64,000 nt of DNA from a virus: IMG/VR virus record IMGVR_UViG_3300032224_001477, positions 12,209 to 76,208 of that record; one strand, 5' to 3'. Both the position numbers and the translations under genes were made by a program. Each line of letters opens with the position of its first letter. Positions within the stretch are counted from its first letter, which is position 1. Under the pieces are notes generated by a model. It was not told the origin of the DNA. It did no database searches and was given only the letters and a program-made list of their open reading frames with translations. Positions 8,992 through 35,700 of this stretch are shown here, one piece after another.

Positions 8992-9015
8992 CTAATTCCA
9001 GACAGTATTTAATAT
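8987..9015 (+). promoter_or_regulatory. Promoter, recurring ATTGAC-N8-GNNAGTA motif
   Basis: ATTGACT-AATTCCA-GACAGTA-TT-TAATAT, 8 nt before ATG 9024. Confidence 0.65.
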
Positions 9016-9023
9016 AAAACCTT

Positions 9024-9347: not shown

Positions 9348-9353
9348 ACGGCC

Positions 9354-10421
9354 ATGCCGAAACTCGGCTTAGGCTTATCGTTGCCGCACCAAAGTAGTTC
9401 GACGTTGGGACGACCGATATTTCCAATCGATGCTGATTTTTCTACCTACGCTCTTGGGACGTTGAACGGACAGAATTCTTGGGATTTAATAGGTCTTACA
9501 AATACAACGAACCCAATTCAAGTAGTTCAAGCCTCAGTTTCAGCGGGGGGTCCTATCCCACAGTCCATAAGAATAACTGGAGTTGCCTCTTCTGCTGCTT
9601 CGTACATCGACATACCAAGCAATTTGCGTTTTGATCCGACAACAGTTACTGAGTCAACGACTTTTTACTACGTGCTAGACAACTTTAGAATTAGAGAAGC
9701 CATGAACTCATCAAGCTCTCAGGGGCAAGGTGTTTTTGCTATAACTACAAATCTTCAGGGGGTTAGCCCACAGGCTGCTCGGCTGTACGTGCGTAGATTT
9801 GGCGGCATTACTTCCAACACAACAACTTTTGATTTGGGGATTGTTACTAGCGGAACAGTGCTCCCAACTTACGGAACCACCGCGCTTACTGTGGGGATTT
9901 CTTATAAAATTGTTGTGGCTTATACAGCTAATCCGGGTTCGGCAAATGACGTTGTAAGAGTTTATGTAAACCCAATTGGAACAGACGTTACTACGTGGAG
10001 TCATGAGACAGCTCAAATATCAACAGCTGACCCAACTGCCTCTTTCAAATCGTTTCAGATTGTGCCGGGGTATATCAGTAACAACACCAAACTCGATATG
10101 AATGTCGGACGTATTTTAGCGGGTTTATCCAATGTGTTGGATGTAACACCTATTGCTGGTGAAACCTGCTCCAACAATGTGGCAAAAGTTGTTATGTATG
10201 GTACCGCTCCGTTTGAACAACGAACTCTTTCTCCAATTGAGTACGCTCCGTACGGAAAAGAGACGTATCAGTATGGGGATGAGGTTGTGCGGTTTGATGG
10301 CTCGGCATGGATATACTCTAACGCAACTTACGGGGAACTTGTTAGGGTATACAGCTATGTGGATTGGCCTTGGCTTGTACCGTGGACGACTCCTTACTCT
10401 GCAGCAAGAATATGCCCTTAA
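9354..10421 (+). CDS. Putative virion spike/lectin-like protein
   Basis: MPKLGLGLSL N-terminus common in phage virion appendage proteins; Thr/Ser/Val-rich beta-sandwich-like body. Confidence 0.5.
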   Translation: MPKLGLGLSLPHQSSSTLGRPIFPIDADFSTYALGTLNGQNSWDLIGLTNTTNPIQVVQASVSAGGPIPQSIRITGVASSAASYIDIPSNLRFDPTTVTESTTFYYVLDNFRIREAMNSSSSQGQGVFAITTNLQGVSPQAARLYVRRFGGITSNTTTFDLGIVTSGTVLPTYGTTALTVGISYKIVVAYTANPGSANDVVRVYVNPIGTDVTTWSHETAQISTADPTASFKSFQIVPGYISNNTKLDMNVGRILAGLSNVLDVTPIAGETCSNNVAKVVMYGTAPFEQRTLSPIEYAPYGKETYQYGDEVVRFDGSAWIYSNATYGELVRVYSYVDWPWLVPWTTPYSAARICP

Positions 10422-10430
10422 CCAGTTAAT

Positions 10431-10459
10431 ATTGACTGTAAAAAGACAGTAACTAGCAT
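10431..10459 (+). promoter_or_regulatory. Promoter, recurring motif
   Basis: ATTGACT-GTAAAAA-GACAGTA-AC-TAGCAT, 6 nt before ATG 10466. Confidence 0.65.
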
Positions 10460-10465
10460 CCATAT

Positions 10466-10939
10466 ATGGCTAAGAATAAAATCCCAGGATTGCTGATTGA
10501 AGGTCTTGGGGTGGCTAAAACAGAGCCCATGCACGACGAAGCCACGGAAGGACCGGAGATCCTGGAGTCTTTTGCATCCTCCCCTGCCCCAGGAGAGTTC
10601 TTCTCTACCCTCCTGCACTCGGCCACCATCGCCCATCAGATTCATTTTAAGACTCGTTCTTTTGCCGTCCATAAAGCCTTGGGCAAGTTCTACGAAGAGG
10701 TTGTGGAGCTGACCGATGGGCTCGTAGAGTCTTGGCAGGGCAAGTATGGGTTGGTTAAGAACTTCCCTTTCAAATATGACCTGGAGACCGAGGATCCTGA
10801 GTCATTCCTGGCAGACCTTGATTACTACGTTAAAACGCATCGTGAGCTAGTTTCAGACGATTCTGAGATCCAGAACGACATTGATACGATCCAGACCCTG
10901 ATTAACTCCACCACCTACAAGATCCGCTTCCTCAAATAA
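10466..10939 (+). CDS. Ferritin/Dps-like four-helix protein (DUF5856-like)
   Basis: H..HF.TRSFAVHKALGKFYE...D.LVESWQG.YG...IQN.ID.I...TTYK.RFL. Confidence 0.75.
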   Translation: MAKNKIPGLLIEGLGVAKTEPMHDEATEGPEILESFASSPAPGEFFSTLLHSATIAHQIHFKTRSFAVHKALGKFYEEVVELTDGLVESWQGKYGLVKNFPFKYDLETEDPESFLADLDYYVKTHRELVSDDSEIQNDIDTIQTLINSTTYKIRFLK

Positions 10940-18660: not shown

Positions 18661-19107
18661 ATGAAATCAGCTGTACTCGATACGCTGGATGACATGGACG
18701 TAGGTATCGACCAGCTCCTACCTACCACAAGCGATAAACCCACAGCTAAAAACCTTTGGGCTATCTGCACGGAAAGCCAATGGGTTAGCCGTGCCTGTGG
18801 TTGGGAGAAGATTGCCAAGACTTCAACGGATCAGTTTCCTGAAGACAAGGCAACCGTCCGCGCTAACCGCAATACCGGCAAGTCGAACATGATTTACACG
18901 GTGTACTTCAACTACGGCACACGGACACACACAAGCAGTTGGGGTAACTACAATTATAGAAGCCGATTGATGGTTAGCACAACAGGCGAACTAGTTGATC
19001 GTCACTTCCACTTCAACGGTAGTTGCCCCACTGACGGAGAACTTCAGAAGATCACCGACACAATGGAGTTCATTGAGTCGAGGATCCGGGCCGCGAGTAA
19101 CGGCTAA
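18661..19107 (+). CDS. Early hypothetical protein
   Basis: GGAGG SD; coupled to small ORF 18503-18664. Confidence 0.65.
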   Translation: MKSAVLDTLDDMDVGIDQLLPTTSDKPTAKNLWAICTESQWVSRACGWEKIAKTSTDQFPEDKATVRANRNTGKSNMIYTVYFNYGTRTHTSSWGNYNYRSRLMVSTTGELVDRHFHFNGSCPTDGELQKITDTMEFIESRIRAASNG

Positions 19108-19167
19108 TCAGTACGGTTCTATGAACCGCGATCCACAATACAACAAACTAAAACGGAGGATACACAC

Positions 19168-19518
19168 ATGGCTTACGTTGTTACAGCCACACCTGATCAG
19201 GTTGACTTGTTTGGCAAGGCGTCTGATCAGCTCAACAAAGCGAAGAAGGTACGGGATGATCTCGTCAAACGGATCTTTCTACCTTCGTCTCATGACGGAA
19301 ACACGCACTGGGCAGGGGCACATTATCAGATCACTGCCTCTGAAAGGCGTGTCAATCGGTTCGATGTAGAGACCTTAATCAGCAAACTTCAGGAGCGTGG
19401 CATCGATGATGCCAACGCCCTGGTTGAATCCTGTCAGAAGGATTCCATCAGCGTTTCGTTTCGATCCACCGTCCTCATTGGACGGTTGGCAATGCAACTC
19501 GCACAAGCAACCAGCTAA
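19168..19518 (+). CDS. Early hypothetical protein
   Basis: GGAGG SD, 116 aa. Confidence 0.65.
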   Translation: MAYVVTATPDQVDLFGKASDQLNKAKKVRDDLVKRIFLPSSHDGNTHWAGAHYQITASERRVNRFDVETLISKLQERGIDDANALVESCQKDSISVSFRSTVLIGRLAMQLAQATS

Positions 19519-19532
19519 AGGAGATACCCACC

Positions 19533-20279
19533 ATGGCTAAACTAAAAGCAACTGCACCGGTGTCCGTCGAAGCACTCGACGTACATCCCTTACCCCCATC
19601 AACCGAAACCTTCCACCCCGTAGCACACGGTAGTTTGCACAGCATGTTCTTGCAGGCATCCGAGGCTGCCGGACTGACTGTGGTACCAGCTAAGTTCCAG
19701 CTCGCACCCAATGGCGAGATGGCCATCGGTACCTACAACCTCATCGACTCACGCCTGGATGGTACAGAGACCAAGGCGCAGATCGGTTGGTTCAATAGCT
19801 GGGACAAGTCCTGCTCAGCCCGCATGTACATGGCGGACGAGATCAAGTGGTGCACCAATGGGATGGTCTTTGCCATGCGGGTGTTAGCCCGCAAGCACAC
19901 GACCAACATTCTGGCTGACCTGCCCGGCGGCATAGCCAAGGCTATGAGCGACGCAGTACCCAAGTTCCTGGCTAACCGTGTTCGCATCGAGACGTACAAG
20001 TCGACGGCCTTGGAGACCAAGGACGCTGACCACTTGCTCATGGAACACTGGCGCCAAGGTATCCTGGGTGACCGGCAGTTGAAGCGTGCTCACTCCGAGT
20101 GGGTCGAGCCTACCTACAGTGCGTTCAAACCACGCAGTGTCTGGTCCTTCCACAACGCCATCACCGAATCCCTGAAGTCAGCTGTCGTGTTCGATGCCCC
20201 GCATCTGACCACGTTGAGCAACGACATCCTGGATTCGTACACCAACTTCAGCGAGCCGGCGTTCGCTGGAGCGAACTGA
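19533..20279 (+). CDS. DUF932-like protein
   Basis: PVAH, IGWFNSWD.S, CTNGM, RKHT, SVWSFHNAITE.LK motifs. Confidence 0.75.
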   Translation: MAKLKATAPVSVEALDVHPLPPSTETFHPVAHGSLHSMFLQASEAAGLTVVPAKFQLAPNGEMAIGTYNLIDSRLDGTETKAQIGWFNSWDKSCSARMYMADEIKWCTNGMVFAMRVLARKHTTNILADLPGGIAKAMSDAVPKFLANRVRIETYKSTALETKDADHLLMEHWRQGILGDRQLKRAHSEWVEPTYSAFKPRSVWSFHNAITESLKSAVVFDAPHLTTLSNDILDSYTNFSEPAFAGAN

Positions 20280-20285
20280 TTGGAT

Positions 20286-20315
20286 GGGGAGTGCCGTGTA
20301 ACAGCGGCACTCCCC
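20286..20315 (+). terminator. Strong hairpin (terminator or processing site)
   Basis: GGGGAGTGCCG-N8-CGGCACTCCCC, 11-bp perfect stem, no U-tract. Confidence 0.45.
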
Positions 20316-20408
20316 TCCCGCTATGGCAACCGTAAGCAACACCCTGGGTAAGATCCTAGCCATCCTATCGGTGGTTGGTTTCATACTCCTATTACTACTG
20401 ATGAAAAT

Positions 20409-22754
20409 ATGATCATAACAAACTCAAGACAGACACCGTTCCAGTCAGCACAGTTTGTAGAAAAACAATTCAGTATCCGCATCAACCCCAAACTATTCGA
20501 GGCTCTCGGTTCGTTGTACACGGACCCAATCCTAGCCATCTGCCGTGAGTACATGACCAATGCAGATGAGGCACACCAGCTTGCCGGTCACAATCAACCC
20601 ATCCGGGTTACGTTACCCACCGCCTTAAAGCCTGAGCTCGTCATTGAGGACAAGGGGCCTGGCTTATCGCAAGATAAGATCTTTGAGCTGTTCACCACAT
20701 ACGGTGCAAGCGGCGATGAGAAAGAGACAAGCAATGCTTACGAGGGTGGCTTTGGTCTAGGCGGTAAGTGCTGGCGGTCCTATGCCGACAGCATCATCGT
20801 CGAGTCCAAGTACGATGGGACTAAGACAACCTATTCGTTCTTCCTGGACGAGACGGGTATGGGTAAAGCTGCTGTCCTTAATAAGACCGCAGCCACCGGC
20901 ACGGGCGTGACCATCCGCATCCCCATCAAGAAGGATGACATCGGCACCTTCACTGCACGCGCAGTAAAGATTGGCTCGATGTTTCCTGTCCGACCTACCT
21001 TCACCAACCTGACCGACGCACAGTTCAAGGAGTCAATGGATGACGACATGGACTTTGCCAATCGGACTACCATCCATAAGACGGATAAGTTCAGTTACTT
21101 TGGCGACGGCTCTGCCTCGTATGTTCGTATGGGTAGGTTGGTCTACCCTGTCACCGGTCAGCATCTTCCCTCCAACTTCAGCGAGATTCTAAAGAGTCTG
21201 CTCGAAGCTGGCGTGTTGATTAACTTTACTGTTGGCGAACTGGATCTTGCGCCTAGCCGTGAGACGCTTAAGTACACCACCAAAACCGTATCGGCTTTGT
21301 TTGGTGAGCTGAAAGCTGCGGCTGACGGGATGGCCAAGGGTATCCTGAAGGAAGTTAATGATCTTCCCTCGGAGCACCTTGCCATTCTCAGGATCAATGA
21401 GCTGACCAAGAAAGCCTATCGTGGCACCGGGTACAACAGCTCTCATGTGGAAATGTTCAGCCGCAAACTGGCTGAGAAGTTGGATAAGAAGTGGACGTGG
21501 CAGGGCAAGCCGCTTCTGCACAACACCTATGATCTGACTAAAGCGTTTCCTCCGGAGCCAGCAAATTACCCCAACACAAAAACTGAGTACTACAAATCGC
21601 TTGGCCTAAGTAGCCGTGTGTTTTGGCTGAAGAACTGGGGCAACAAGAACCTTCAGTTCGAGGACGAGCGGGAGATTATTCCGTCCAAGCGTGCTGCCTT
21701 TGTAACCACAGGTACTCGCCTGTCCTCACCCAATGTGAGGATTAAGAAGTACCTCAACGACCACAAAGAGTTTGACCACGTCTATTTGCTGGGCATGACG
21801 GATTCCGCCAAGGCTGCGGTTACCGCCAAGTACCCGGGGTTGATGAGCTTACCGTTCATTGACGTCGATACCTTGCCGCTACCTGAAAGGGATAGCTCCG
21901 GCGACGGTAGCACAGCTACTGGCGTTAAGAGTAAGAAGCACTGCAAGGGCAACGTGTTTGTGTTCGATGGCAATAACTCGAATGCAGAGAAACGTTCCGA
22001 CTTGTGGGGCATAACCAAAGACTACGACCTAGACGTACAAGAGCTCTATGTCGTATTGGATAACTTCCATGCCAACACCTTGAAGGGTGCGCACTTTGGT
22101 ATGTGTCTCAACACAGCTAGGAAAGCGTTGGCCTCAGTGGGCATGAAGTTTGATTACATCCACGGTATCAAGACTGGCGAGCTGGATAAGGTTAAAGACT
22201 CCAAGTGGTTGCATATCACTGAAGCCTTCGACTTAGCCTGTGCCAAGCTTGATGCTGACGAAGCATTGAAGGCCAAGGTCTACCCGATCATGGTCTACTC
22301 AATGGCTGGCAAAGGACTTCATTGGTCCAGTCGACCAAAGAACATGACGGAGAAACAGCACGGCCGGCTGTCTTACCTGAAAGAAATGCTTAAGCGAGTG
22401 AGCTCGTTTGTTCAAGGTACTAAAGGACTTGATGAAGTTCTCTTGGATATTAACCGCGAGTTCCAAACGTTAAGCGATGAACGCGCAACCTACGACAGTT
22501 GGTTGAGCATGGCATATACCCTCGACTTTGATTGGTCAAAGGTTGTGGGGTATGAGCCAGCAGTCTTCGACAAGATGCGTTCGTTACTCAGAGATTACCC
22601 ACTGCTGCGTTACTTCAACTACAACTCCAATGTTCTGAACGACACGTTCAGATCTAAAGGAGCCGCAGCTTTGAATGAATACATAACTTTGAAGCAACCC
22701 CTGGTTCAGAAGAATCAGGTCAAGCTTCCCAATAAAGAAAGAGAGGTAGCATGA
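20409..22754 (+). CDS. rIIA: rIIA-like protein with N-terminal GHKL ATPase
   Basis: LYTD...REYMTNADEAH, DKGPGL, GGFGLGGK, TGVTIRIP, LDLAPSRETL; directly followed by rIIB-like gene. Confidence 0.85.
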   Translation: MIITNSRQTPFQSAQFVEKQFSIRINPKLFEALGSLYTDPILAICREYMTNADEAHQLAGHNQPIRVTLPTALKPELVIEDKGPGLSQDKIFELFTTYGASGDEKETSNAYEGGFGLGGKCWRSYADSIIVESKYDGTKTTYSFFLDETGMGKAAVLNKTAATGTGVTIRIPIKKDDIGTFTARAVKIGSMFPVRPTFTNLTDAQFKESMDDDMDFANRTTIHKTDKFSYFGDGSASYVRMGRLVYPVTGQHLPSNFSEILKSLLEAGVLINFTVGELDLAPSRETLKYTTKTVSALFGELKAAADGMAKGILKEVNDLPSEHLAILRINELTKKAYRGTGYNSSHVEMFSRKLAEKLDKKWTWQGKPLLHNTYDLTKAFPPEPANYPNTKTEYYKSLGLSSRVFWLKNWGNKNLQFEDEREIIPSKRAAFVTTGTRLSSPNVRIKKYLNDHKEFDHVYLLGMTDSAKAAVTAKYPGLMSLPFIDVDTLPLPERDSSGDGSTATGVKSKKHCKGNVFVFDGNNSNAEKRSDLWGITKDYDLDVQELYVVLDNFHANTLKGAHFGMCLNTARKALASVGMKFDYIHGIKTGELDKVKDSKWLHITEAFDLACAKLDADEALKAKVYPIMVYSMAGKGLHWSSRPKNMTEKQHGRLSYLKEMLKRVSSFVQGTKGLDEVLLDINREFQTLSDERATYDSWLSMAYTLDFDWSKVVGYEPAVFDKMRSLLRDYPLLRYFNYNSNVLNDTFRSKGAAALNEYITLKQPLVQKNQVKLPNKEREVA

Positions 22755-23593
22755 ACATAATCATAACCGAAAATGACCTGACTGCGGTCATCAACAACAA
22801 GTCCTACACCCTCCGAAAGGAACACCCAAACTTCCGGTTGGTGGTGGACGGCATCAAGAACAAGTTCCCTGAGACGGAGATCGTTGACTTGATGGACGTC
22901 ACTAAGAGCGTCACCCATTACACCAACGGTAAGGTGGAGGTGCGTAACGGCGAGGTGTTCTACGACAACGAGCTAGTACAAGGCACGTTGGTAGAGCGTC
23001 TGCTCAGCTTCATGCAGGAAGGTCTTCCGCATGAACCCTACATAAAGTTCCTGGAGAACCTTATGCAAAACCCCAGCAGTCGTAGCCGGTCTCAGTTGTA
23101 CCGCTTCCTTGAACACAAGAGTCTGCCCATCACAGATGATGGCTGCTTCCTTGCGTACAAGGGAGTCAGGGATAACTACCTGGACTGCCACTCAGGCACG
23201 ATCGACAACCATCCCGGACGGCGCATCACCATGCCCCGCTCCAGGATCTCGGACGATCCTGACCTGGGTTGTCACACCGGGTTACACGTGGGTAGCGAGG
23301 AGTATGCGACCAGCTTTGGTCAGCGTACCGTCATCGTTAAGGTTAACCCACGTGACGTGGTGTCTGTCCCACTCGACTGCGATTGCCAGAAGATGCGGGT
23401 CTGTGAGTATGAAGTCACGGCGGACTACGCCGGCTCCATGCGTCAGACTTACAGCTCCAGCAATACGGGGTACGGCGACAACGCCTACAACAATACCGAT
23501 GACGGCTGGGGTCAAGAGGATGAGTCTGGTGCGCACAGCACATCAGTCCTCAACCCTAATCGTTACGAGTACAAGTTCACACATCAGGTCTAA
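22751..23593 (+). CDS. rIIB: rIIB-like protein
   Basis: FLENLMQNPS, QLYRFL, ITDDGCFLAYKGV, C..GLHVG, VKVNPRDVVSVP.D...KMRVCEYEV. Confidence 0.9.
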   Translation: MNIIITENDLTAVINNKSYTLRKEHPNFRLVVDGIKNKFPETEIVDLMDVTKSVTHYTNGKVEVRNGEVFYDNELVQGTLVERLLSFMQEGLPHEPYIKFLENLMQNPSSRSRSQLYRFLEHKSLPITDDGCFLAYKGVRDNYLDCHSGTIDNHPGRRITMPRSRISDDPDLGCHTGLHVGSEEYATSFGQRTVIVKVNPRDVVSVPLDCDCQKMRVCEYEVTADYAGSMRQTYSSSNTGYGDNAYNNTDDGWGQEDESGAHSTSVLNPNRYEYKFTHQV

Positions 23594-23666
23594 TTACTGA
23601 CTGATGATGGCCAGTAAGGGGCGGTCGTTCCTATCCGACCGTCCCTGAAAACCATAAGGAGGACAC

Positions 23667-23867
23667 ATGAGTGGAGTTACATACGGACAGTGGTGGGCCC
23701 GCATGTCGTCTCAAGCTGCAGCTGAAAGCTCTCGTGAATACCACGATCTTAAATCTCAAATGCTCAAGCTTGAGAATCAAAAGCTGAAGGAAGAAATCCT
23801 AAAGCTTAAGAAAGACAACAACATAATTGAACGGGAGCAACAGCTTCAATCGGATCGTTGGGCATGA
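23667..23867 (+). CDS. Small coiled-coil protein
   Basis: AAGGAGG SD. Confidence 0.6.
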   Translation: MSGVTYGQWWARMSSQAAAESSREYHDLKSQMLKLENQKLKEEILKLKKDNNIIEREQQLQSDRWA

Positions 23868-24082
23868 GCCTACTCAACAAAGCAGCAGTTAAACGCAGCG
23901 CCCTTGATCTGGCCACAGCCAAGTACAAGGAGCGCAACAAGACTAGGTTAGAGATGGGCATCGCTCCGTTGAAGGCTCCGCCTTCACGGGTCAGCGGCGA
24001 GTTCATCGACACCTTCGAAGCCAAAGTGATTGGCTTACTCAACAGTATGGTCAATGACCATAAGACGGGAGCAACACTATGA
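23864..24082 (+). CDS. Hypothetical basic protein
   Basis: ATGA overlaps on both sides. Confidence 0.6.
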   Translation: MSLLNKAAVKRSALDLATAKYKERNKTRLEMGIAPLKAPPSRVSGEFIDTFEAKVIGLLNSMVNDHKTGATL

Positions 24083-24717
24083 CGTTAACTATGGCTGAGT
24101 CCCACATCGGGGCTTTGTCCAATCCAAGTAAGATGCCCGGCTGGGGCTGGGGCATCTCCGCACTTAACTGCAACATCGGCACCAAGCTAAGAGAAGTAAT
24201 CGATAGCGTATGCGCTGAGTGCTACGCCCTACGCAATCATTACGTTATGCAGAATGTAATACAGGCTCACGCTAAGCGTCAGCTTGCATCCAACCGCGAT
24301 GATTGGGTCGACCTCATGGCGTTTATGATCAACATGAAATCAAAGAACAAAGGCGGAGACGCCTTCCGTTGGTTTGATTCTGGTGATCTTCAATCGGTAG
24401 AATTACTGACAAAGATCTGTCAGGTCTGCGTCAAGACACCTAAGGTAAAGCACTACCTACCAACGAAGGAATACAAGATTGTACAGGACTATGTCCAGGG
24501 TGGCGGGGTTATCCCCGACAACCTGTGCATCAGGCTGTCCGCTTACATCATCGACGGTCCACTACCCCAAGCCTTAGCCCAACGCCTCGGCGTACAGACA
24601 GCTGTGACCGTAACTAGCAACGCTACCTGCCCAGCTAAACAGCAGAACAACAAATGCTTGGACTGCCGCATTTGCTGGGACAAAGCCACACCCAACGTCA
24701 GCTACATCAAGCATTAA
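24079..24717 (+). CDS. Gp88-like Fe-S (radical SAM-related) protein
   Basis: SKMPG, C-x13-CAECYA, FRWFDSGD, HYLPTKE, NLCIRLS, CP...C..CR.CW, terminal H. Confidence 0.8.
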   Translation: MTLTMAESHIGALSNPSKMPGWGWGISALNCNIGTKLREVIDSVCAECYALRNHYVMQNVIQAHAKRQLASNRDDWVDLMAFMINMKSKNKGGDAFRWFDSGDLQSVELLTKICQVCVKTPKVKHYLPTKEYKIVQDYVQGGGVIPDNLCIRLSAYIIDGPLPQALAQRLGVQTAVTVTSNATCPAKQQNNKCLDCRICWDKATPNVSYIKH

Positions 24718-24727
24718 GAAAGGATAC

Positions 24728-25300
24728 ATGATACAACCCATTAACCCTGTCAATGTTACGGACTACCAAAGAGACGACGCCAACCTTCAAGCCTTCTGGA
24801 TCTTCTGCGTACTGACCGCCGGCAAGAATGCCGACACGGCAGCAAAGAAAGTATCGGAGTTACTGAACCGATTCACCACGCAGAAACCCTTTGAGTACAT
24901 ACGACAGCTTGGTCCTATTGCCCTGCGCAACGCCCTGCTTTCCGCCAAAAGCGGACAGTATGAGCGGATCTCCCAAGCTTTAATGGAATCATGCAACCTC
25001 AACCTTAGATACGCCACGACGGATGAACTGGACGAGGTATACGGTGTAGGCCCCAAGACAGCTAGGTTCTTCATCCTACACACCAGACCCTCGGTTAGGG
25101 TCGCTGTGCTCGACACCCACATCCTTAAATGGATGAAGAGTGTCGGCGTAGAAGATGTGCCCGAGACATCCCCAACAGACAAGAATGTGTACGAAAAGTA
25201 TGAGCGCATCTGGCTCACGCTTTACCCGTCACACTTCCCCAATTGCACGCCGGCTCAAGCCGACTTGCTTATCTGGAGATTAATGAGCGGACGCGAATGA
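24728..25300 (+). CDS. HhH-GPD DNA glycosylase/AP lyase (Ogg2-like)
   Basis: FCVLTA, HhH GVGPKTARFF with catalytic Lys, VAVLDTHIL with catalytic Asp, ADLLIW. Confidence 0.8.
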   Translation: MIQPINPVNVTDYQRDDANLQAFWIFCVLTAGKNADTAAKKVSELLNRFTTQKPFEYIRQLGPIALRNALLSAKSGQYERISQALMESCNLNLRYATTDELDEVYGVGPKTARFFILHTRPSVRVAVLDTHILKWMKSVGVEDVPETSPTDKNVYEKYERIWLTLYPSHFPNCTPAQADLLIWRLMSGRE

Positions 25301-25524
25301 AAAGAAAAACAAAAAATAAATCACTACTGATAACAGTCGAACAAGGACTCGTACATGGATACAGACTTCCAAAAGGAATTGATGTTCTTGTTGTTGACTT
25401 AGATACCGCAAAGCATGAAGGGCAAGAATCAAAAGCTAGGCGTTGGCTTAAGAGAGTATCAGACGGTTCATGCCCAGAAACAACCTCCGAAGAACTTGGT
25501 TGGAGAGAGTGGGAAAGATTATGA
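25297..25524 (+). CDS. Hypothetical protein
   Basis: ITVEQGLV...DVLVVDLD; ATGA overlap. Confidence 0.55.
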   Translation: MKRKTKNKSLLITVEQGLVHGYRLPKGIDVLVVDLDTAKHEGQESKARRWLKRVSDGSCPETTSEELGWREWERL

Positions 25525-25733
25525 GATTCTTTTACCACTTCAACAAACCCTTATCGGTACAACGTAAGGACGTCTGGTGGACTATCCACTACCAGGGTCG
25601 TTGCGTTCCCATCACAGGTTTCGAGTGCCGTGTGCCAACACACGATCGCAAACGAAAATCACAACCTCGTGCAGTTGTTTGGGGCGATGCCCACAGCATC
25701 GTCATTCAAGACAACCGCGCAATTATTACATAA
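25521..25733 (+). CDS. Hypothetical protein
   Basis: FFYHFNKP...TIHY.G.C...C.VPT...QPR.V pattern; ATGA overlap. Confidence 0.6.
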   Translation: MRFFYHFNKPLSVQRKDVWWTIHYQGRCVPITGFECRVPTHDRKRKSQPRAVVWGDAHSIVIQDNRAIIT

Positions 25734-25744
25734 AGGATACCCCT

Positions 25745-25960
25745 ATGACGTCATACGCCATAAAGAATAACCGCAACCTTTGGCTCTCCATCGACGATAC
25801 CTGGATTGACCTTGAGGAAGGCATCCGCCAGGACACGATACGTGGCTACACAGAATTGGACGCAGTTAACGAGGATCTATTCAAGTACCAAGAGGAGAAG
25901 GCTACCATTGCCTACCACCCCTGGCAGCTGGGTAAGACCCGAGAGCTGTTGCTACCATGA
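25745..25960 (+). CDS. Hypothetical protein
   Basis: AAAGGA SD before ATG 25745. Confidence 0.55.
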   Translation: MTSYAIKNNRNLWLSIDDTWIDLEEGIRQDTIRGYTELDAVNEDLFKYQEEKATIAYHPWQLGKTRELLLP

Positions 25961-26601
25961 CTGCCGGCATTAGGGATCTTTACTACAACCTCAAACAGTC
26001 CGACATCGACAGCTACACCCGCTACTGGGATGAGATTAATCCCAGAGGAGACAAGATGCGGGAGTTCAAGTTCTGGATGTTCAGCATCTTCGCAGCCAAC
26101 ATGGGCTGGGAGGACAACGTCAAGTGCATGGAAGCTGTCGGCAACCACAATGATTGGATCGACAATACAGCCGAGTTGGAACGTAGACTGTACAACGCAC
26201 GCACTGGTTTATGGCGGAGCAAAGCCAGAGACATCCAGCGTTTCACACAGTTGTTTATGCATAAGTATCACAGCTTTGTGCGTCAAGCCAACGAGAGCTG
26301 TACCGAATACCGCAACCGCATTGCCGCGACTGTCCCTGGTTTAGGGCTGGCTAAAGCCAGCTTTGCCATTGGCATGTTGAATCCTAACTGCATGGTCGTC
26401 TGCCTGGATCGATTGATCTTGCGTGGAATCCATGCATTAAAAGGACGGCAAGTAAACAAAACGGAGTACACAAAAATGGAGAACCATTGGACTAGACTTG
26501 CCTCTGACTATGACGTTAAACCGTTCATTGCCAGAGAGATCTGGTGGAACAAGTTTCAAGGCTTTAAGTCCACGAGATATTGGAGTAAGACACTTGAATG
26601 A
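25957..26601 (+). CDS. Divergent HhH-GPD glycosylase-like protein
   Basis: FSIFAAN, VPGLGLAKASF, VVCLDRLILR, EY..ME..W; aligns by eye with 24728-25300. Confidence 0.7.
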   Translation: MTAGIRDLYYNLKQSDIDSYTRYWDEINPRGDKMREFKFWMFSIFAANMGWEDNVKCMEAVGNHNDWIDNTAELERRLYNARTGLWRSKARDIQRFTQLFMHKYHSFVRQANESCTEYRNRIAATVPGLGLAKASFAIGMLNPNCMVVCLDRLILRGIHALKGRQVNKTEYTKMENHWTRLASDYDVKPFIAREIWWNKFQGFKSTRYWSKTLE

Positions 26602-27185
26602 CGAACAAGAGATTATTATGGAGAGCAGATAAAGACTATAAACATTACCAAGAAGGAGACATTAAACTAGGTAAGGATCTTGCTGACTTCGTATACAAGC
26701 AGATAAAGATCCAGGGTGTGGACGTCCAAAATCTTGGCAAGAAAAGCAAGACCTATTGGATGACTTGGGATGAGTGCAGTGCTTATTACCAAAAGCATTG
26801 TAACTATGTCATGCCTCACGATTGTGAGTTCGGCCACGAGAACTGTTCCGATAAGCCTAAGGGTATCTGTGTTTATTGCACAGCTATGTTTGAGCATATG
26901 CGGTCACATGAGTCATCGTTGCTTGCCGCATTCCAAGACGAGAGGATCCAGGAGATCCTCGGACCGGAAGAAGTTAACGCATACTACCAACGTATGACTA
27001 ACTACGATCCCGATCTAAACAAAGACATCAACAAAAAGCTGTTTGAGAAGAAGTGCATGATTGATCTTCCATCCAGATTCAAAGGTAAAGGCGAGCAGTT
27101 AAAAGAACTGTACGATGCCTTCAAGGGTCCAAGCCCAATGGTCAGGGCTGACGATCCTCCTGAACCACCTTGTAAAGTGTTCTAG
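26598..27185 (+). CDS. Hypothetical Cys/His-containing protein
   Basis: 195 aa; last + strand gene, stop overlaps the convergent late gene. Confidence 0.6.
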   Translation: MTNKRLLWRADKDYKHYQEGDIKLGKDLADFVYKQIKIQGVDVQNLGKKSKTYWMTWDECSAYYQKHCNYVMPHDCEFGHENCSDKPKGICVYCTAMFEHMRSHESSLLAAFQDERIQEILGPEEVNAYYQRMTNYDPDLNKDINKKLFEKKCMIDLPSRFKGKGEQLKELYDAFKGPSPMVRADDPPEPPCKVF

Positions 27186-28534
27186 AGAAGCCTGCCCGAC
27201 GGCGAGCGTCTTGATCCCCCACCTGCCATGGTGCCAAATCTTCCCGTGTTCACAAAGAAACGTGGAGGGGGTCGGACGTTCGCCGTTGTGGTGGATGAGG
27301 GGCTCATGCCGTCCTCATCATCTTCATTTTTTTTACGTGGTTTAAAGTCGGGGATATTACCGGCAGACTGAACTCGATTGGCTTGCTTAGCTGCCAGCTC
27401 GGCAATCATCCCTTGTGTGTCGGGGTTGCTCAGGAAGGACATGATGTCTGGCTCCGAGGCTTTGTCTTGAATCCCAATGGGGGCTTTAACTGCCTGCTCT
27501 GCCATTGCTACGGATTCCTTAGCGGAAGGTTTGTAAGTATCGGCCGATGGCTTGGGTTCAGGAGTCTTATTGATTTGCTCCTGCTGTCTCCTGCTCAGCT
27601 CTTCAAAAGCCTTTTGGAAGTTACCCTCGGTAGCGTCCATACCTTTTTCTTTAAGCCAGTTGCTAGCTTCTTCAATCCCGATAGAAGGCACGTTCTTTGT
27701 GGGCTGCTCCGGCCCCGCTGACTTTGCGTTAGCTACTGCCGTAGGCTCTTCAGACTTTAAGATACCCATAGCGTCCATAGCTTTGTCGCCAACCATTGGT
27801 AGTAAAGTGCCACCAGCAAAAGCCCCAATCCCCGGCGCCCCCACTCTGCCTCCTAACGCCGCACCAACTTTTGAACCGATACCAACCAGCGCGGTGTTTA
27901 CCGCCTGACGAGCCAGCTTTTTATTTGACTCAGGTTTATCCAGGGCCTCCGTGAAAGACTGTCCCTTATCCATATCTGACTTCATCTCCCATGCTCTACT
28001 GACAGCTGGAAATGCAGCATACGCAGTCGCCATTTTATTATTCAACACCGCCTTACCTATCTTAGAACCCGAGGCTTTTCCTAAACCCTTACCTGTTGCC
28101 TCCCCAAGATTTTTAAATTCTTGCCCCAGGCCCTGCACATATTTTCCAAAAGGTCCCGCTTCTTTAGCCGCACCGGCCGCCGCCTTACCGGCTGTATCCG
28201 CTGCCGCTTTGCCAACCGCAGTCGCTTCAGCCGTAACCGCGTCCTTTGTAGCTTTGGCCGCAGGGTTAGTGGCTACGGACTTTAACTTGGCGCCTTTGGC
28301 TTTAGGTGCGGTAGTTTCAACAGGCGCAGATCCCTCAACCTTTGGAACGCTTTGAGTTGGGTTCTTGCCTGCCCACCCAGCAGGAAGCTGAGCTTCAACT
28401 TCTTGTAGCGCACCCTTCTCAAGCAAGTCACCCAAACGGGTTTGTGTTTCCGGGGGCTGCGTCTTCAACCACTCTCTTATCTGGGTTACTTTATCTACCT
28501 TAACCGAGGGCTTGGTTTTAATCTTTGGCGCCAT
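27182..28534 (-). CDS. Putative internal virion protein
   Basis: Ala/Lys/Gly-rich 450 aa with glycine-zipper segment; AAGGAG SD. Confidence 0.55.
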   Translation of the reverse strand: MAPKIKTKPSVKVDKVTQIREWLKTQPPETQTRLGDLLEKGALQEVEAQLPAGWAGKNPTQSVPKVEGSAPVETTAPKAKGAKLKSVATNPAAKATKDAVTAEATAVGKAAADTAGKAAAGAAKEAGPFGKYVQGLGQEFKNLGEATGKGLGKASGSKIGKAVLNNKMATAYAAFPAVSRAWEMKSDMDKGQSFTEALDKPESNKKLARQAVNTALVGIGSKVGAALGGRVGAPGIGAFAGGTLLPMVGDKAMDAMGILKSEEPTAVANAKSAGPEQPTKNVPSIGIEEASNWLKEKGMDATEGNFQKAFEELSRRQQEQINKTPEPKPSADTYKPSAKESVAMAEQAVKAPIGIQDKASEPDIMSFLSNPDTQGMIAELAAKQANRVQSAGNIPDFKPRKKNEDDEDGMSPSSTTTANVRPPPRFFVNTGRFGTMAGGGSRRSPSGRLL

Positions 28535-28886: not shown

Positions 28887-29690
28887 CTACCCGTTAAAGA
28901 ACCCTGGGAACTTATATTTAATTGGCTGTTGATAATCGAAGGTTGGTTTGTTCAGACTGTTAGCGTAGTCAGCGAGCATCATGTTGGTCGCGTTCGACCC
29001 AGCTGAATCCCCTGCCCCAGCAAATCCCTCAAGCAATCCGGCTATGCCACCCATGATATCTAACCCCGAGCTAGTAGAACTCCCCGCCACTGCCCCGGCG
29101 CCCATACCCTTCCCCATCAATGCGCCTCGACTTGGGCTGTTCGAAGACATGAGGTCTTCTTTTTTTAAGGAGAACCCAGGCTCTAAGGGTTGACTGGCGG
29201 CCTGATTGCCTACGGGCATTGAAGACTTAATCTCTGGAAGCAGGCGATCAACGCTCTTCATTGCGCCCATGATAGAGTTTGAATATTCTCGGGGGTTGGT
29301 TGTAGCGTACCCAGAGGTGGCTAAGGCGTTGGCAAAACCCGCAGGGTCTGCTTGCCCGCGAACATTTTTGTACCTGTCTGTAGATAAGAACTTGGTGTAC
29401 TCATCTGCGTATTGGTTGAAGTCATTAAACTTTTTGAAGTCGGCTTCAGTGTTAATCACCTTGCCGTTAACGGTTTCTTTTGTCGGCATCCGCACGGACG
29501 GCCCGCCCTTCCACTCTTTAATCCCGCCGAAATTATTTGCTGCCTTCGCAAGCTTGCTTGTCCCCCAACCAGATTCCATAGCCCACTGCGCCATGACCGC
29601 ATTACTTGGGACACCTAATCTTGCGGCTACGCGTTCGGCAGGGACAACTGCTGCTTTGATAAAGTCGATCTGTTCTTGTCTTGTAGCCAT
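28887..29690 (-). CDS. GH73 glucosaminidase/FlgJ-like virion peptidoglycan hydrolase
   Basis: AQWAMESGWG.S, NNFGGIK, TKE, GYAT.P..Y motifs; low-complexity C-terminus. Confidence 0.9.
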   Translation of the reverse strand: MATRQEQIDFIKAAVVPAERVAARLGVPSNAVMAQWAMESGWGTSKLAKAANNFGGIKEWKGGPSVRMPTKETVNGKVINTEADFKKFNDFNQYADEYTKFLSTDRYKNVRGQADPAGFANALATSGYATTNPREYSNSIMGAMKSVDRLLPEIKSSMPVGNQAASQPLEPGFSLKKEDLMSSNSPSRGALMGKGMGAGAVAGSSTSSGLDIMGGIAGLLEGFAGAGDSAGSNATNMMLADYANSLNKPTFDYQQPIKYKFPGFFNG

Positions 29691-29731: not shown

Positions 29732-32700
29732 CTACAGCTTTACACCTTGCCGGATTAGCTCCGGTGTCAGCTGTGCCTTTGCAGTAGCGGTTGCTTTTTG
29801 CCCCAGCTTGGTCAAATAATCGTCTAACTGTTCGGTGCTCATGCGCTTCGCCATTGAGAAGAACGAAGGACTACGAACAACCTGGGCGATAACCTTTCCT
29901 CGTAGCTCTCTAAATCTATAGAACTGCTCGTCATTAAGCGGGTAGTTTTGAACTGTCTGTCCTCTTCGAGCGTCTGGGATAAAGGCTTTCTTGGCTGACA
30001 ACAGTTTGAAGAGAGGGTCTGCTTCAGAAGTATTGATAAACCTCTGTAAGAACAGCAACCTCTCCGGCCCTGCGGGAGCATTAACCACCTCACCCAATAC
30101 ATTGAGTTGCGGCTGCCCAGTCATGCTCTTCAAGATCGGCACTTTGTTAAACAACCATTTACCCACAAAGCTTGTCTGTTGTTGCGGAATGGGTTCAAAG
30201 ACTTGATCCGCTTGCTTAATAATGTTGGGCACTGCGTTGCCGACCGCACCCGAAAAGAAGTTCTGTGCGGCCGATACGTCCTGACCTTCAGAAGTTCCGT
30301 CCAGCATCTTAAACAAGTTGGACAACCCCTGCAGGAATGATTGATTGAAGGGCACCTGAATGGTAGCGAGCGCGGCCGATGTAAGCTTTTCACCCATGTC
30401 TTTTTCACGACCCCTCGGATAGTTTGAGGTATCAAACCACGTTCCAACAATCGCCAATGGGATTGCTAGCGGGGTGGACAGATAGCTAACTTTAACGCTA
30501 TTGCCACCAAAGGAGAATGAGTACGGTACGTAACCAGCTTCGCGTGCCTGCTTTCTAGCTGCAGGATCTGAAGGTCCACCACCAGTGATATTAAAGCCGT
30601 CATCCTGTCCGTCGTCGTCCTTATCTTTTAGCATGTTAGACAAGCCAGCCAACACAAGCATGCCGGCTGTACCAAGAGTTGCTTGAATAGCGTAAAGGCT
30701 GCCCTGCTCGATCAGCTTGATTTGTTCCAACTGTTCTACCGACTTAGCCAGCCCACTTGTCTTTTTTGTGCCGGCCTTACCCCAAGCCAGGAAGGCTCGG
30801 TACGCACCGATCGGAGTATAGTTGATGCTTTCGTTGGTAACATTTGAAACGATCTTGGTGAAAGGAACAAATAGCGGACCGAGAATTGGATGCTGTTGAG
30901 AGAATGTTCCAATACATTTGGCTATGTTGCCAAGCACTCCATACGGCGCGTTATTATATGTGGCGTACAAAGATAGATCTTCGGCCCGGCGCATAATCGA
31001 AGCTCTCTCAGGATCTTTGAGTATTGCTTGATCCCTGAGTTCATATACTCGCTTCGTAAACTCTGCAGTGCCTGGCTTCAAACCCTCATCGTTGATGGCC
31101 ACATTTGTAGCGTAAGCAACGAAATTGTCTGTTTGATTAAGAAGCCGAGCCGCCTCTTCTTCAGGCGACAACTTGGTAAGCCCATTCTCAACATTCTCGA
31201 TTGCCTGGATCTGGGCTTGGATAGCTGCAAAACCTTCCAGTGCAGAACGGCCGAACAATGCGTCCGAAGCTGCCATAATTCGGAAAATATACTTACCCTT
31301 GGACAGCACCTTTTTCATGAGGGTGTCTGTATCCATTGATTCAAGAGCATTGATACTAGCTTCATCCACGTACTTACCATTTGTTCTTAGGTTGATGTCT
31401 CCGTGAAGTAGGATTCCTTTAGCTTCTGCAAAAGCAATGGTGTGCATGGATGCCAAGAATGTTTTGTATCCTAGGGCCATGTACTTTGCGGCCAGCAGAG
31501 GGTTGCCTCTGGCTGTAGCTGCAGCCAACGAGTAAGTTGCAATATCCGCGATTGACTTAAAGGCCGTCGAGACAAAGTTCATCCAGAAAGTTGCTGGGCC
31601 TGAAAGCATGGACATGTACCAGTAAGCGGAGATCTGAGGGAGGGCATCAGACTTTGTCGCTCCGTGAAGAACTCTGAGCGCCTCTTGGAACTTTCTATCC
31701 TTCTGGAAGCCATCAGGTAATTCAGCTGCCTCTTCCATCATGCGCCTTAGGGTTTCGGCCGTGTTCACATCAAAAGATGGGAACTTACCAAGACTGTCGA
31801 TGCTTGAAAGAACCACCTCCTCGTTGATTGCACCTAAGGCAGCCAACTCAAGAATCTTCCTTGCGTCTCCCGCAATCGCATTCTCCAGGGTGTTGCCCGT
31901 CCGAGAGATTGGCGGCTTAACCACTTCGTGCATTTCGCTAAGCAATTGCTCAATGCGTTCAGACTTTAGCTCGGGGATGGTCATGCCCGCACGGTTCACA
32001 ATCTTTCTTCCAAGCGTACGACCACGAAGACTTAAAGCTTTTCCAAGCTGGGTTTGCATGTTTGCTTTCACCATGTCCGCCAACTCTTGAAACCTAAGCG
32101 GAGCATTTTCGTAGTCGGGCAACAGCCGGGACAGCACTTTGACTAGGTCTTCCCCACTGAACTGCTCGTAGTGATTCCTGATGATAGTAACGATGTCGTC
32201 CGCGTTGTTTTCTCGCAGTGCTTGAGAGTAAAGCCTGTTGATCTGTTCGATAAGGCTTTGTACGCCCTTGTCCTTAAGGGTGAGTCCTAGTGCAACATCC
32301 TGAAGCTCCCTGACTTCTTTACGAATTTCTTCGTTTTGGGTGGCTACCCTATCTTTTACACCTCTGCGGGTCTCAGCAAGACGCGTAATGTATTCGTTAA
32401 CCATGCCAGCCGGCGTGTACATCAAGAGTTCTTTTAGAAGTTTGTACCCAATCGATATTGTCTGCCCCATGTTGCGACCGAGATTGGCTATATAGGTAAG
32501 AAGATCTGATGCTCTTTTGACCTGACCCCTCTCCCTGAAACGACGAATTGCGTAACTGGCGAGCAGAACAATCTGTCGCTGGTTTAATTTGTAGGGTTGA
32601 CCCCCAATATCGATATCCTGAGTTTTGTCGGCATCGGGTCCAACCTGCGTTAACCACATTGAAATCTTTTCGGGACTTAACTCATCGAGAACGCCTTCAA

Positions 32701-35700
32701 CTGCCTCGATTGCCCCTTCATCAGCAAGATATGAGAGGTCTGCTTTTTGCGATGCTTTTTCGTAGGTCGGTACACCGTCCTGGTAGATCTCGGCCGCTCG
32801 GGCTGCCGCGGACAAAGGTTGAGCCCCGATCGGTCGGGCTTGATCAATAGCTTCTCCCAAAGAGTTTAACCCAGGAGCTTCAGAGCTTGGCACGTTATAC
32901 GACGGGGGCGCTACGTAATCGGAGTAGAACCGATCGTATACCGTGTTGATCTTGTAATAGGTTTCGTAAAGACTTCTCGCCCTTGGGTCGGAAGAGTTCT
33001 TAAGAGTGCTGAAAAGATTAAATATAGAATCAAGAACCGTACGCAACCACCCAAGGAACGACCTGCGTCGCGCCCTGGAAAAGGTGTCGAGGTTTCTTAC
33101 CTGTTGCCTGGACTGTCCCTGGATCAGGTTGGATACACGATCTTGAACCTGAAGGCTGCGGACAAGCTCAAGACTCTCGGTAAACACCTTGGCGCCCTGA
33201 CTCTTATCAAGCTCAAGAAGAACTCGGAAGAACTCAGCAACCAGCACTTCATCGCTTTCTTTGGTCTCGGGATAAAGTTCGCCGAGCGCTTGTTCAACTG
33301 AAACCGCTTTCTTGCCCGGCAACTTGACCATGAGCCCGTTGTCTTCTGAGCGAAGGAAGTCCGCTGCCTCACGAACTCTGGTGTTGTAGTAAGACACCCA
33401 AGATACCCCACCATTGGGGAAACGCGCTCGGTATTCTTTTCGGAGCTGTTCGAAGTAAGAAAGATGCGCCACTTCGTGGGTAATAAGTTGGTCCATCAAA
33501 GCCGCGGTAAGGTTGTTGTATGTGTTCCTTGCATCGCCGTCCAAGAATTTAATATCTTTCTGCTGGAAAAGTTTATCTGCCAGAAGTTCTGGGTTAACAA
33601 AGATGGTTGAGTTGATTGGGTCATTTGCGTTTTCGGAACCGCGAACCGTGAACACAGGGTATTTCTCTTTGGTGTTTGAGACGAAGTTGACGTTCTTTAG
33701 ACCTCTGCGACGAGCAATAAAGCGAAGGTATTCCATCGCCTTCTCTTGTCTTGGATCCTCGAGGTTAAGAAGGTTTGAATCAAAGCTAACCCCGGCGTCA
33801 GCAAAGCCTGACTCGGTAGCATATTTAGCAGCTCCGGCCACATCGGCCTGAACCTTCTTCATCCTGGAGCGGTCCGCTTGCTTGATGTAAGGATCGTTGA
33901 TCTTGCGCATTTCACTGAGCGCAGCGGCCGAGTTAAACGGAGCACGACTTTCAAAGGCCGGCAGGAGAATGTTAAACAAGAGATCCTTGACCCGAGTCCT
34001 ATCGTTTTGTGGGCTGATCAGTTCTTCCGGGGCCAGCGTGCGGTCGAATTTACCAACTGGGTCCAGCAGTTGCTCGATCATCTGCTCGCGGGTTACGCTA
34101 TTGAGCCTGTAAATTCTATGAAGAAGATTCGTAATCCGCATCGCAGCGTCGTTCAACGACTCAAGAGGACTGTTTTCCAGAATCGCCAACATAGCTTTAG
34201 AGAGTGAACCCTTACGCGCTACGTCCGCTACAATTCTATTTAGCTCTTTCCTAGGGTCAGTGCCTTTTGCAATATCCGCACCCGCGGCCTTAACCGCAGC
34301 CCGGATCTCACTGTCCTTCTCGAGCTCTGTTTGAGCCTCTTGATCGTACAATTCAAGGACGTCCTTAACTTTCTGAGCATCCGAGAACTCCTGCATATTA
34401 TTACGTTCAAGTTCCTTAAGAATGCCCTCGTACCTGTCTTGCGCGATTTGACGAAGCACAGGTTCTTGAATGAAAGAGGAAGGAATGCCAGATAGTGACC
34501 CGAATACTTTGTTAAGCAACGCGCCACTGAGAAAGCCTTTGCCTTTTCCTTTGTCACCGACTTGCGACCCACTTTTGATTTTGATGGTGGGAAACAGAAT
34601 ATCCAGCTGGGCGTTGCTCTTGCCGTTGTACATGGAAGGACGGTATCCCGAAGTGAATCCAAAGCCTTCACGCATAATGATGTCATGAACAGCTCTGGGG
34701 ATGAAAGGCAGGGTGTTGCGGTATGCGGCCATCTTATTGATGAACGCTTCGAACTTTGTCCTGCGTTTGTTTTTGGTTGGTAGTGTTTCATATTTGTCTA
34801 GCTCCGTAAAATATCCTTCGTTATCGAGGCCAATCTGCGCGTCGTAATCACTGCCCATATCTTCCGGTGTGAGACTAGCTTCAAAGATATCTTCAACTGG
34901 TCTTCCCTCTTTCACCTCCTCTGTTCTGCCTTCAAGTGAAACAAAAGACTTCTCTCTCAACTTCATCGAATCTGCAATCAGACTAACCCGCCTTGCTAAA
35001 CCAAGAACTCCGGCATAGCCCTCAACCGACAAGGATGAAACAAACCCGTATAAAGTATTGGTTGGGCGACTTTCGTCTAGGTAGGTACCGCCAAAAGGCT
35101 CTTGAGTCATGCTGTCGTACTGCTTGAAGATCTTTCCAAACAACGCACTTAGTCGTCTTCTATTGTACTCAGCATCCCTATTCCCCCTGGCTTCCTCGAC
35201 CTTCAACTCCTCATTGTTTGTCTCGAGCACCTCTGGAGCTCTCTTGCTGCGTATAAGCGCCTCGATAAACACTCTTCGCAGCATCTCACTGTCCTTTGAA
35301 TTCTCAGGAGTAGTGACGCTGAGGTTATCTACAAGGCTTCTAACCTCGGTTTCAGACAAGCCACTTTGCTTGGCTCGGGTTAGCAAATGCTCCAAGGGAC
35401 GGCCGGAGCGCCCTGCTGCGTTGCGGTTGACCCCTACTTCGTAAGACCAACCCTTTGAAAGATCTTGTTCGTCAATCGGCGTATACACCATTCCGCTCTT
35501 AAAGACATTTACTGCATCTTGAATGATGCGTGGGAGCAGGGCTAGTTCTTCAGAGTCAAACGCTCCCTCGTCAATGGCTCTCTGCAGACGCGCATCAACA
35601 TCTTCGAGGAACAGAGAGTTCATGTCTCTCCTGGTGTTCGCAGCCATTGATTCTACCAGACTCTTTTCAATGCTTTCGCGAGTCTTGCCGAATCCATCCA

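Follow-up and report, generated by a model that had tools for sequence, protein, structure and literature searches.

DNA glycosylases of the OGG2 family, represented by the structures of MjaOgg (3FHF/3KNT), AfOgg1 (9O00-9O03), TmOgg (3N0U) and SsOgg (3FHG), are two-domain HhH-GPD proteins of about 200 amino acids without the A-domain of OGG1, with their catalytic Lys in a GxGxK motif and their catalytic Asp some 18 residues beyond it. They end in a strictly conserved, buried lysine whose carboxylate reads 8-oxoguanine (8-oxoG) by accepting its N7-H (PMC3397491; PMC13490550). An HhH fold is also predicted for the aGPT-Pplases, which often occur as paralogous pairs and serve in thymidine hypermodification. 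As published, this process depends on an aGPT-Pplase in which a Cys and a Glu are essential, on a hydroxymethylase and on a 5-hydroxymethyldeoxyuridine (5-hmdU) kinase, and the HhH-fold transferase of phage M6 works alongside a radical S-adenosylmethionine (SAM) enzyme (PMC8989533). Here we describe a stretch of 64,000 nucleotides (the window) from an uncultivated freshwater phage, bases 12209-76208 of a complete 76,208-bp IMG/VR contig with 123-bp terminal repeats, in which two predicted proteins of OGG2 size and architecture, named HhH1 and HhH2 here, are encoded close to a protein of the viral Gp88 family.

T4 endonuclease V is a phage-encoded DNA repair enzyme, and both it and UvdE are, like the functions proposed here, accessory enzymes of phage self-repair, although their folds and lesions differ from those of HhH1 and HhH2. 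To our knowledge, no Ogg2-like enzyme pair has been characterised in phages. The reading that we favour, at somewhat better than an even chance, is that HhH1 and HhH2 are independent base-excision enzymes of the phage whose specificities are non-canonical and complement each other, and that they lie beside an unrelated and widespread viral iron-sulfur (Fe-S) protein. If it is true, freshwater phages bring their own two-enzyme base-excision kit, which would add to the few phage repair functions known. A preliminary description of the window had noticed the Gp88-like gene, an Ogg2-like glycosylase behind it and, three small open reading frames (ORFs) later, a second, divergent one, and had proposed a base-editing or anti-defence module; these genes are all present in that arrangement, and the motifs it quoted are found in the translations.

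HhH1 and HhH2 as divergent relatives of Ogg2

HhH1 is tied to the OGG2 fold by sequence, through the family PF22175 and through its best solved relative, AfOgg1 of Archaeoglobus (9O00; phmmer E 1.2e-5). The Lys/Asp dyad of AfOgg1 (K122/D140) is kept as K110/D129 in the motifs GVGPK and LDTH, and the phosphate-binding H142, the base-contacting D185 and the stacking W189 (residue roles from PMC13490550) are all retained, as H131, D179 and W183; Phe114 and Leu117 stand where AfOgg1 has His126 and Arg129. The HhH1 family comprises 838 clusters within reach of a word-based search, and in an alignment of 27 sequences G106, G108, K110, D129, T130, H131, D179, W183 and S187-G188-R189 are invariant, both members of the OGG2 GxGxK lysine and aspartate signature (K110, D129) among them. 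The end of the protein departs from this pattern: HhH1 stops at ...MSGRE, 7 residues past the stacking Trp, whereas Ogg2 enzymes end in a Lys 9 residues past it, which bears out the earlier remark that the C-terminal Lys is missing. Family members have anything from 1 to more than 40 residues behind the invariant SGR, so that there is no conserved terminal carboxylate. Judged from its sequence, HhH1 is not a canonical 8-oxoG reader, and is very probably an active bifunctional glycosylase/apurinic-apyrimidinic (AP) lyase, predicted to act on a purine-like base.

HhH2 has a more rearranged active site. Its AlphaFold2 (AF2) model (pLDDT 93.9) aligns end to end with MjOgg, TmOgg and SsOgg in Foldseek, at TM scores of 0.71-0.76. 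When aligned by profile with MjOgg and with the HhH1 family, HhH2 has in both cases Ala132 at the nucleophile position and Lys133 at the next residue, with the Asp kept, just as the preliminary description had read the motif GLGLAK; the same two alignments put Arg193 in place of the base-contacting Asp and show Trp197 retained. K133, C149, D151, R193 and W197 are invariant in 30 diverse members. With D151 present but its Lys displaced, HhH2 lacks the GxGxK lysine feature of OGG2 as it is defined. A conserved RYWS..E tail stands instead of the C-terminal Lys, and the invariant Cys149 lies two residues before the catalytic Asp151; after that Asp, the protein of the window has Leu where most family members have His. 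The family numbers 215 representatives at E up to 1e-3 in an exhaustive HMMER search, and tblastn against 50,697 GenBank phage records gave no match: HhH2 belongs to an uncharacterised, putative glycosylase family found only in metagenome-derived sequences. Its rearranged active site would offer a useful test of how far the HhH catalytic lysine can move.

The two families are mutually related (hhalign probability 95%, about 21% identity), and each has an invariant catalytic Asp and an invariant Lys, the latter at different positions. Both have this Asp in common with OGG2. HhH1 further retains the lysine of the GxGxK motif, a His behind the Asp and the purine-holding Asp...Trp pair; the Ala at the Lys position, the Lys one residue later, the Arg for Asp185 and the extra conserved tail set HhH2 apart. 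The Ogg2 lesion pocket, formed in AfOgg1 by Arg129, Asp185 and Trp189, is complete in neither: HhH1 has Asp179 and Trp183 but Leu117, HhH2 has Trp197 but Arg193, and the C-terminal Lys sensor is absent from both. Against the NCBI Ogg2 equivalog NF002305, with its cut-off of 183 bits, HhH1 scores 42.4 bits and HhH2 34.4 bits. On these sequence grounds neither protein is a canonical Ogg2, and the earlier suspicion that they are not 8-oxoG repair enzymes stands to that extent, while the Gp88-linked base-editing or anti-defence module proposed with it finds no support.

From the observed folds, motifs, family conservation and neighbourhoods, we infer substrates, a mono- or bifunctional chemistry and a repair role. 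The stretch would be part of an early DNA-metabolism run of the phage in which three enzymes act separately. In HhH1, Lys110 would attack C1' with the assistance of Asp129, with His131 keeping the 5' phosphate in place and Asp179 and Trp183 doing likewise for the flipped purine; because the Ogg2 8-oxoG sensor is absent, its substrates are probably a broader or different range of damaged purines. HhH2 would most likely be a glycosylase for another lesion class, and probably a monofunctional one. The two would together widen the range of damaged bases excised from replicating phage DNA. Completion of the repair would fall to the DNA polymerase I and 5'-3' exonuclease of the phage and to the AP endonuclease and ligase of the host. 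Gp88 would be a separate protein that is simply the neighbour of the glycosylases in this lineage.

Neighbours of the glycosylases and their possible substrates

In 46 of 80 HhH2-family loci elsewhere, an ATP-dependent DNA ligase lies upstream, the median gap being about 0.7 kb; 23 of the 80 have a Holliday-junction resolvase directly upstream and 22 have RecA, with rIIA/rIIB also near. Many large uncultivated phages (L094-L173) keep these genes in the order ligase, Holliday-junction resolvase, HhH2-like glycosylase. Around HhH1-family genes (about 74 loci), UvdE and DUF932 were found 25 times each, ThyX 20 times and rIIB 17 times; in an Erythrobacter phage HhH1 is the gene directly after DNA polymerase I, and the HhH1 match in CcrColossus overlaps an annotated DNA ligase. 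The commonest neighbour of HhH1 and Gp88 alike is a jackhmmer relative of the DUF932-like gene of the window (23 of 79 HhH1 loci, 22 of 80 Gp88 loci). The genes recurring around both glycosylases thus serve repair, recombination and replication; no kinase, pyridoxal phosphate (PLP) enzyme or other modification gene is found among the commonest annotated neighbour families of HhH1 and HhH2 relatives.

These neighbours bear on the link to amino-acid:DNA transferases that the preliminary description had drawn, according to which HhH1 and HhH2 could be aGPT-Pplase-like transferases installing a thymidine hypermodification. The likeness consists in the HhH fold and the paralogous pairing typical of aGPT-Pplases (PMC8989533), aGPT-Pplase2 (M6 gp51, ViI gp247) being likewise phage-encoded, predicted to be glycosylase-like and often paired, and in an invariant Cys close to the HhH2 active site. 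No similarity of sequence or profile was detected to go with it: hhalign matches M6 gp51 with probabilities of 0.06% for HhH2 and 0.22% for HhH1, and Pfam, scanned up to E 0.1, assigns both proteins to Ogg-HhH and HhH motif families only, with no aGPT-Pplase family. Both keep the glycosylase catalytic Asp, and their relatives neighbour repair genes, not PLP, radical SAM or kinase genes. The complete genome has no match to thymidylate synthase/hydroxymethylase or ThyX (PF00303, PF02511), which extends to all 76,208 bp what had been noted of the hydroxymethylase in the window; nor is there a match to an ATP-dependent ligase or UvdE. No kinase-like family was recognised among the larger ORFs scanned, none of the searches having been aimed at a 5-hmdU kinase. 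The transferase reading is nearly excluded, with a very slight chance left to it.

A rather unlikely alternative is that the glycosylases, independently of Gp88, act on something other than damage, either excising phage bases that a defence has installed or marked (ADP-ribosylated, deaminated) or attacking host-modified DNA in counter-defence or takeover. The lack of the Ogg2 8-oxoG sensor in both proteins and the remodelled HhH2 pocket (Arg193, the shifted Lys133, the invariant Cys149) would suit such a role, as would their place in an early run after rIIA/rIIB and beside DUF932, where strains swap small genes; HhH-fold domains are known to sense modified phage bases in END nucleases (PMC12191111). 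PADLOC, however, found no defence or anti-defence family among the genes of the run, the commonest neighbours elsewhere are genes of repair and recombination, not of anti-defence, and there is no candidate substrate to point to. A bolder proposal, which we hold to be distinctly unlikely, makes HhH2, alone or with HhH1, a new Ogg2-fold class that recognises a phage- or host-modified or defence-marked base through Arg193, Lys133 and Cys149, and makes Gp88 a new radical-SAM-like nucleic-acid enzyme; were it true, phages would gain a base-excision tool for counter-defence or attack on the host.

Gp88 and its relation to the glycosylases

Gp88 is among the most widespread viral genes of unassigned function, present in viruses of bacteria and archaea, with 1,823 clusters in a large protein collection and at least 596 IMG/VR loci. 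Seven cysteines are invariant in the family (C31-X13-C45-X2-C48 and C184-X8-C193-X2-C196-X2-C199), accompanied by a FRWxDSGD motif. Radical SAM enzymes carry a three-Cys [4Fe-4S] motif near the N-terminus of a partial (beta/alpha)6 barrel. The N-terminal CX13CX2C of Gp88, with its long first spacer, is comparable to the CX14CX2C of Burkholderia QueE, and the AF2 model (pLDDT 89.8) is an alpha/beta partial barrel. A VIA structural search with this model placed spore photoproduct lyase (SPL) first (4fhc, Z 7.5) and QueE second (5tgs, Z 7.0), followed by further radical SAM enzymes intermixed with GH18 barrels at Z 5-6.4, TIM-barrel hydrolases scoring 6-6.4, in a range below Z 8 where, by the tool's own caution, matches can reflect just a common arrangement; Foldseek against the PDB returned weak TIM-barrel matches only. 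Judged by language-model features and by structures in BFVD, the viral family DUF7227 is related to Gp88 and, more weakly, so is Gp37/Gp68 (DUF5131), a radical SAM subgroup placed beside SPL by RadicalSAM.org (PMC9477430).

Gp88 also has features unlike those of SPL and QueE, namely a second, four-Cys motif at the C-terminus and no sequence match to a solved protein or to PF04055. The Radical_SAM family PF04055 has no match anywhere in the genome, the Gp88 profile found nothing relevant among PDB sequences, and hhalign against M6 gp53, a radical SAM isomerase, gave 0.4%. Literature searches on Gp88, PF17338 and DUF7227 returned only unrelated proteins called gp88 (progranulin, ICP1, the phage 14-1 anti-END). 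Going by its cysteines and its modelled fold, Gp88 is probably an Fe-S, radical-SAM-like enzyme, a reasonable lead that, if proved, would open up a large family. Among BFVD matches, Gp88 domains occur in archaeal viruses too (Nitrosopumilus spindle-shaped virus, Halogranum tailed virus 1) and are fused within proteins of 500-1,200 amino acids in uncultured phages; in several small podophages the gene stands at the very end of the genome.

Could Gp88 itself be a repair enzyme? As a small SPL-like radical SAM enzyme it might reverse an ultraviolet (UV) lesion in sunlit fresh water, in parallel with the two base-excision enzymes. The order of the structural matches, with SPL at the top and QueE second, the three-Cys motif near the N-terminus, the position of the related DUF5131 beside SPL in the superfamily map (PMC9477430), the UvdE genes near HhH1 relatives and the freshwater habitat all agree with this. 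The proposal is nonetheless improbable: Z values of 7-7.5 lie within chance fold resemblance, with TIM-barrel hydrolases nearly as high, there is no match to PF04055 or in sequence to a solved radical SAM enzyme, and Gp88 is much shorter than SPL. Nor do the surroundings of the gene speak of repair. Gp88 has no conserved neighbour, none exceeding 15 of 78 loci in one count. The genes most often seen beside it (small terminase, VRR-NUC, DUF932 and ArdC-like genes, which are not repair genes, and an L5 gp82-like gene) each reach no more than 15-22 of some 80 loci.

Joint action of Gp88 and both glycosylase-fold proteins in editing, installing or removing a DNA base modification was the other possibility to weigh. 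Gp88 and HhH1 are separated by 10 nt, and the order of Gp88, HhH1 and HhH2 is kept in the close relatives L007-L012 (74-99% identity), where it shows shared descent only. A distant relative, L045, has the order rIIA, rIIB, Gp88, small ORF, HhH2, and L214/L215 carry all three genes; SPL, the best structural match of Gp88, is a radical SAM enzyme acting on DNA, and phage M6 provides the precedent of such an enzyme working with an HhH-fold transferase (PMC8989533).

Beyond the close relatives, Gp88 is mostly found apart from the glycosylases. Within 8 kb on either side, HhH2 accompanies 2 of 78 Gp88 loci (L045 and L024) and HhH1 none of them; the 80 HhH2 loci include none with Gp88 and one with an adjacent HhH1 (L106); and among 72 HhH1 loci, Gp88 occurs in 6 (two near-duplicate pairs included), usually 3-6 kb off, and HhH2 is adjacent in 5. 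Among contigs 30 kb or longer, 6 of 32 with Gp88 also have an Ogg-HhH gene of some kind, and full-length Gp88 is present with HhH1 in 5 of 46 (plus four weak partial matches) and with HhH2 in 2 of 46; HhH2 is found on 14 of the 46 HhH1 contigs, and HhH1 on 5 of the 46 HhH2 contigs. Eight of ten near-complete Gp88 genomes are without an Ogg-HhH gene, and nine of twelve near-complete HhH1 genomes without Gp88. Two cultured phages with rIIA/rIIB illustrate the separation, phiCbK having HhH1 after this pair and no Gp88, and Seuss having Gp88 downstream of it and no Ogg-HhH gene.

Most Gp88 genes thus have no HhH partner and most HhH genes no Gp88, and where both are present they are often 3-30 kb apart; HhH1 and HhH2 show no similarity to M6 gp51, nor Gp88 to gp53, and no hydroxymethylase was found. 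We regard joint action as having a small chance, and the functional module of the preliminary description is not supported by these counts. Neighbourhood co-occurrence with Gp88, which it had named as a check, grows rare beyond this lineage. More notable than the pairing of Gp88 with either glycosylase is the recurrence of HhH1 and HhH2 next to each other, in both orders, in the otherwise different contigs L106, L214/L215, L232, L239 and L248. Gp88 and the glycosylases share an early accessory gene pool of aquatic phages and are not a fixed unit.

Several points weigh against our preferred reading of two repair glycosylases beside an unrelated Fe-S protein. Since HhH1 and HhH2 are missing the Ogg2 residues responsible for 8-oxoG specificity, it is not demonstrated that they repair oxidised purines, and the Asp-to-Arg change of HhH2, with the invariant Cys149 beside its catalytic Asp, would be compatible with a non-damage substrate too. 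Ligase, UvdE and ThyX are all absent from this phage, and the repair context is borrowed from other phages. The presence of Gp88 near HhH1 in 6 of 72 distant loci, together with the Gp88-HhH2 synteny of L045, exceeds what is expected for rare genes and leaves room for a loose functional tie between Gp88 and the glycosylases. Gp88, HhH1 and HhH2 are all represented in contigs of three metatranscriptome libraries, with single contigs bridging Gp88 and HhH1; these contigs are consistent with transcription and do not prove it, as DNA can contaminate such libraries.

The gene run, its strain variation and the genome

The Gp88 gene, HhH1 and HhH2 belong to a close-packed, co-directional run downstream of rIIA/rIIB (Table 1), in which a 4-nt overlap between one stop and the next start recurs several times, as at the start of the Gp88 gene. 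A consensus scan of window positions 19000-27600 gave no promoter or terminator signal above chance. rIIA/rIIB flank these genes also in phiCbK, Seuss, L045, L214, L232, L233, L239 and L248. Homologues of the small ORF at 25521-25733 recur in other HhH1 loci and in L045, where a homologue of the next ORF lies directly upstream of HhH2; the Cys/His-rich ORF behind HhH2 is conserved in close relatives only.

Table 1. Genes of the run and its surroundings, in window coordinates
Feature	Position	Strand	Remarks
DUF932-like gene, 248 aa	19533-20279	+	Weak PF06067 match (E 7e-4), under cut-off; upstream of rIIA
rIIA	20409-22754	+	PHROG rIIA, 3.9e-83; opens the co-directional run
rIIB	22751-23593	+	PHROG rIIB, 3.2e-74
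Small overlapping ORFs	23667-23867, 23858-24082	+	No family match; kept in relatives L007-L012
Gp88-family protein, 212 aa	24079-24717	+	PF17338 GP88, E 3.3e-22
HhH1, Ogg2-like HhH-GPD glycosylase (predicted), 190 aa	24728-25300	+	PF22175 Ogg-HhH, E 3.9e-9; phrog_11575, E 3e-44
75-aa ORF	25297-25524	+	Inside a strain-specific 224-nt insert; ATGA overlap at each end
Two small conserved ORFs	25521-25733, 25745-25960	+	Kept in relatives; function not assigned
HhH2, divergent Ogg2-fold glycosylase (predicted), 214 aa	25957-26601	+	PF22175, E 8.6e-9; GLGLAK, CLDRL
Cys/His-rich ORF, 195 aa	26598-27185	+	Overlaps the HhH2 stop by 4 nt; no family match

The 224-nt cassette with the 75-aa ORF sits exactly between the HhH1 stop and the start of the next gene, with ATGA at both junctions. 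It is missing from all six related contigs L007-L012, contigs of the public runs X15 and X5 join position 25296 to 25521 and so skip it, and relatives of the 75-aa ORF were found in none of the loci fetched. Strain break points lie also at 24075-24083, just before Gp88, and at 24728, the boundary of Gp88 and HhH1; contigs from other samples diverge there, and L009-L011 have extra inserts of 170-290 nt at these two junctions. It seems that strains gain and lose small genes at junctions of the ATGA type.

Metagenomes of fresh water and lakes from several studies contain near-identical or related sequence. A megablast search with the region as query gave zero matches among GenBank phages. The homologues of HhH1 and Gp88 in cultured phages are mostly in phages of Alphaproteobacteria (Caulobacter, Erythrobacter, Sinorhizobium, Roseobacter, Pelagibacter). 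A search with the DNA polymerase reached at most 27% identity to cultured phages, and no host is therefore assigned.

Elsewhere, the window encodes a family-A DNA polymerase, a 5'-3' exonuclease, a 2-oxoglutarate (2OG)-Fe(II) oxygenase and many ORFs of unknown family. On the minus strand, positions 29732-42235 are a single ORF of 4,167 amino acids with a zincin-like HEVAH motif, adjoining a 267-aa ORF (28887-29690) and a 450-aa Ala/Lys-rich ORF; its product may be a giant virion or ejected protein. The 12.2 kb to the left of the window code for terminase, integrase, excisionase, RusA and helicase, the integrase and the excisionase-like gene lying at genome bases 8873-10150 and 10400-10696. By combining an integrase and an excisionase-like gene with rIIA/rIIB, 123-bp terminal repeats and a DNA polymerase of its own, the genome shows an unusual mix of temperate and lytic-type features.

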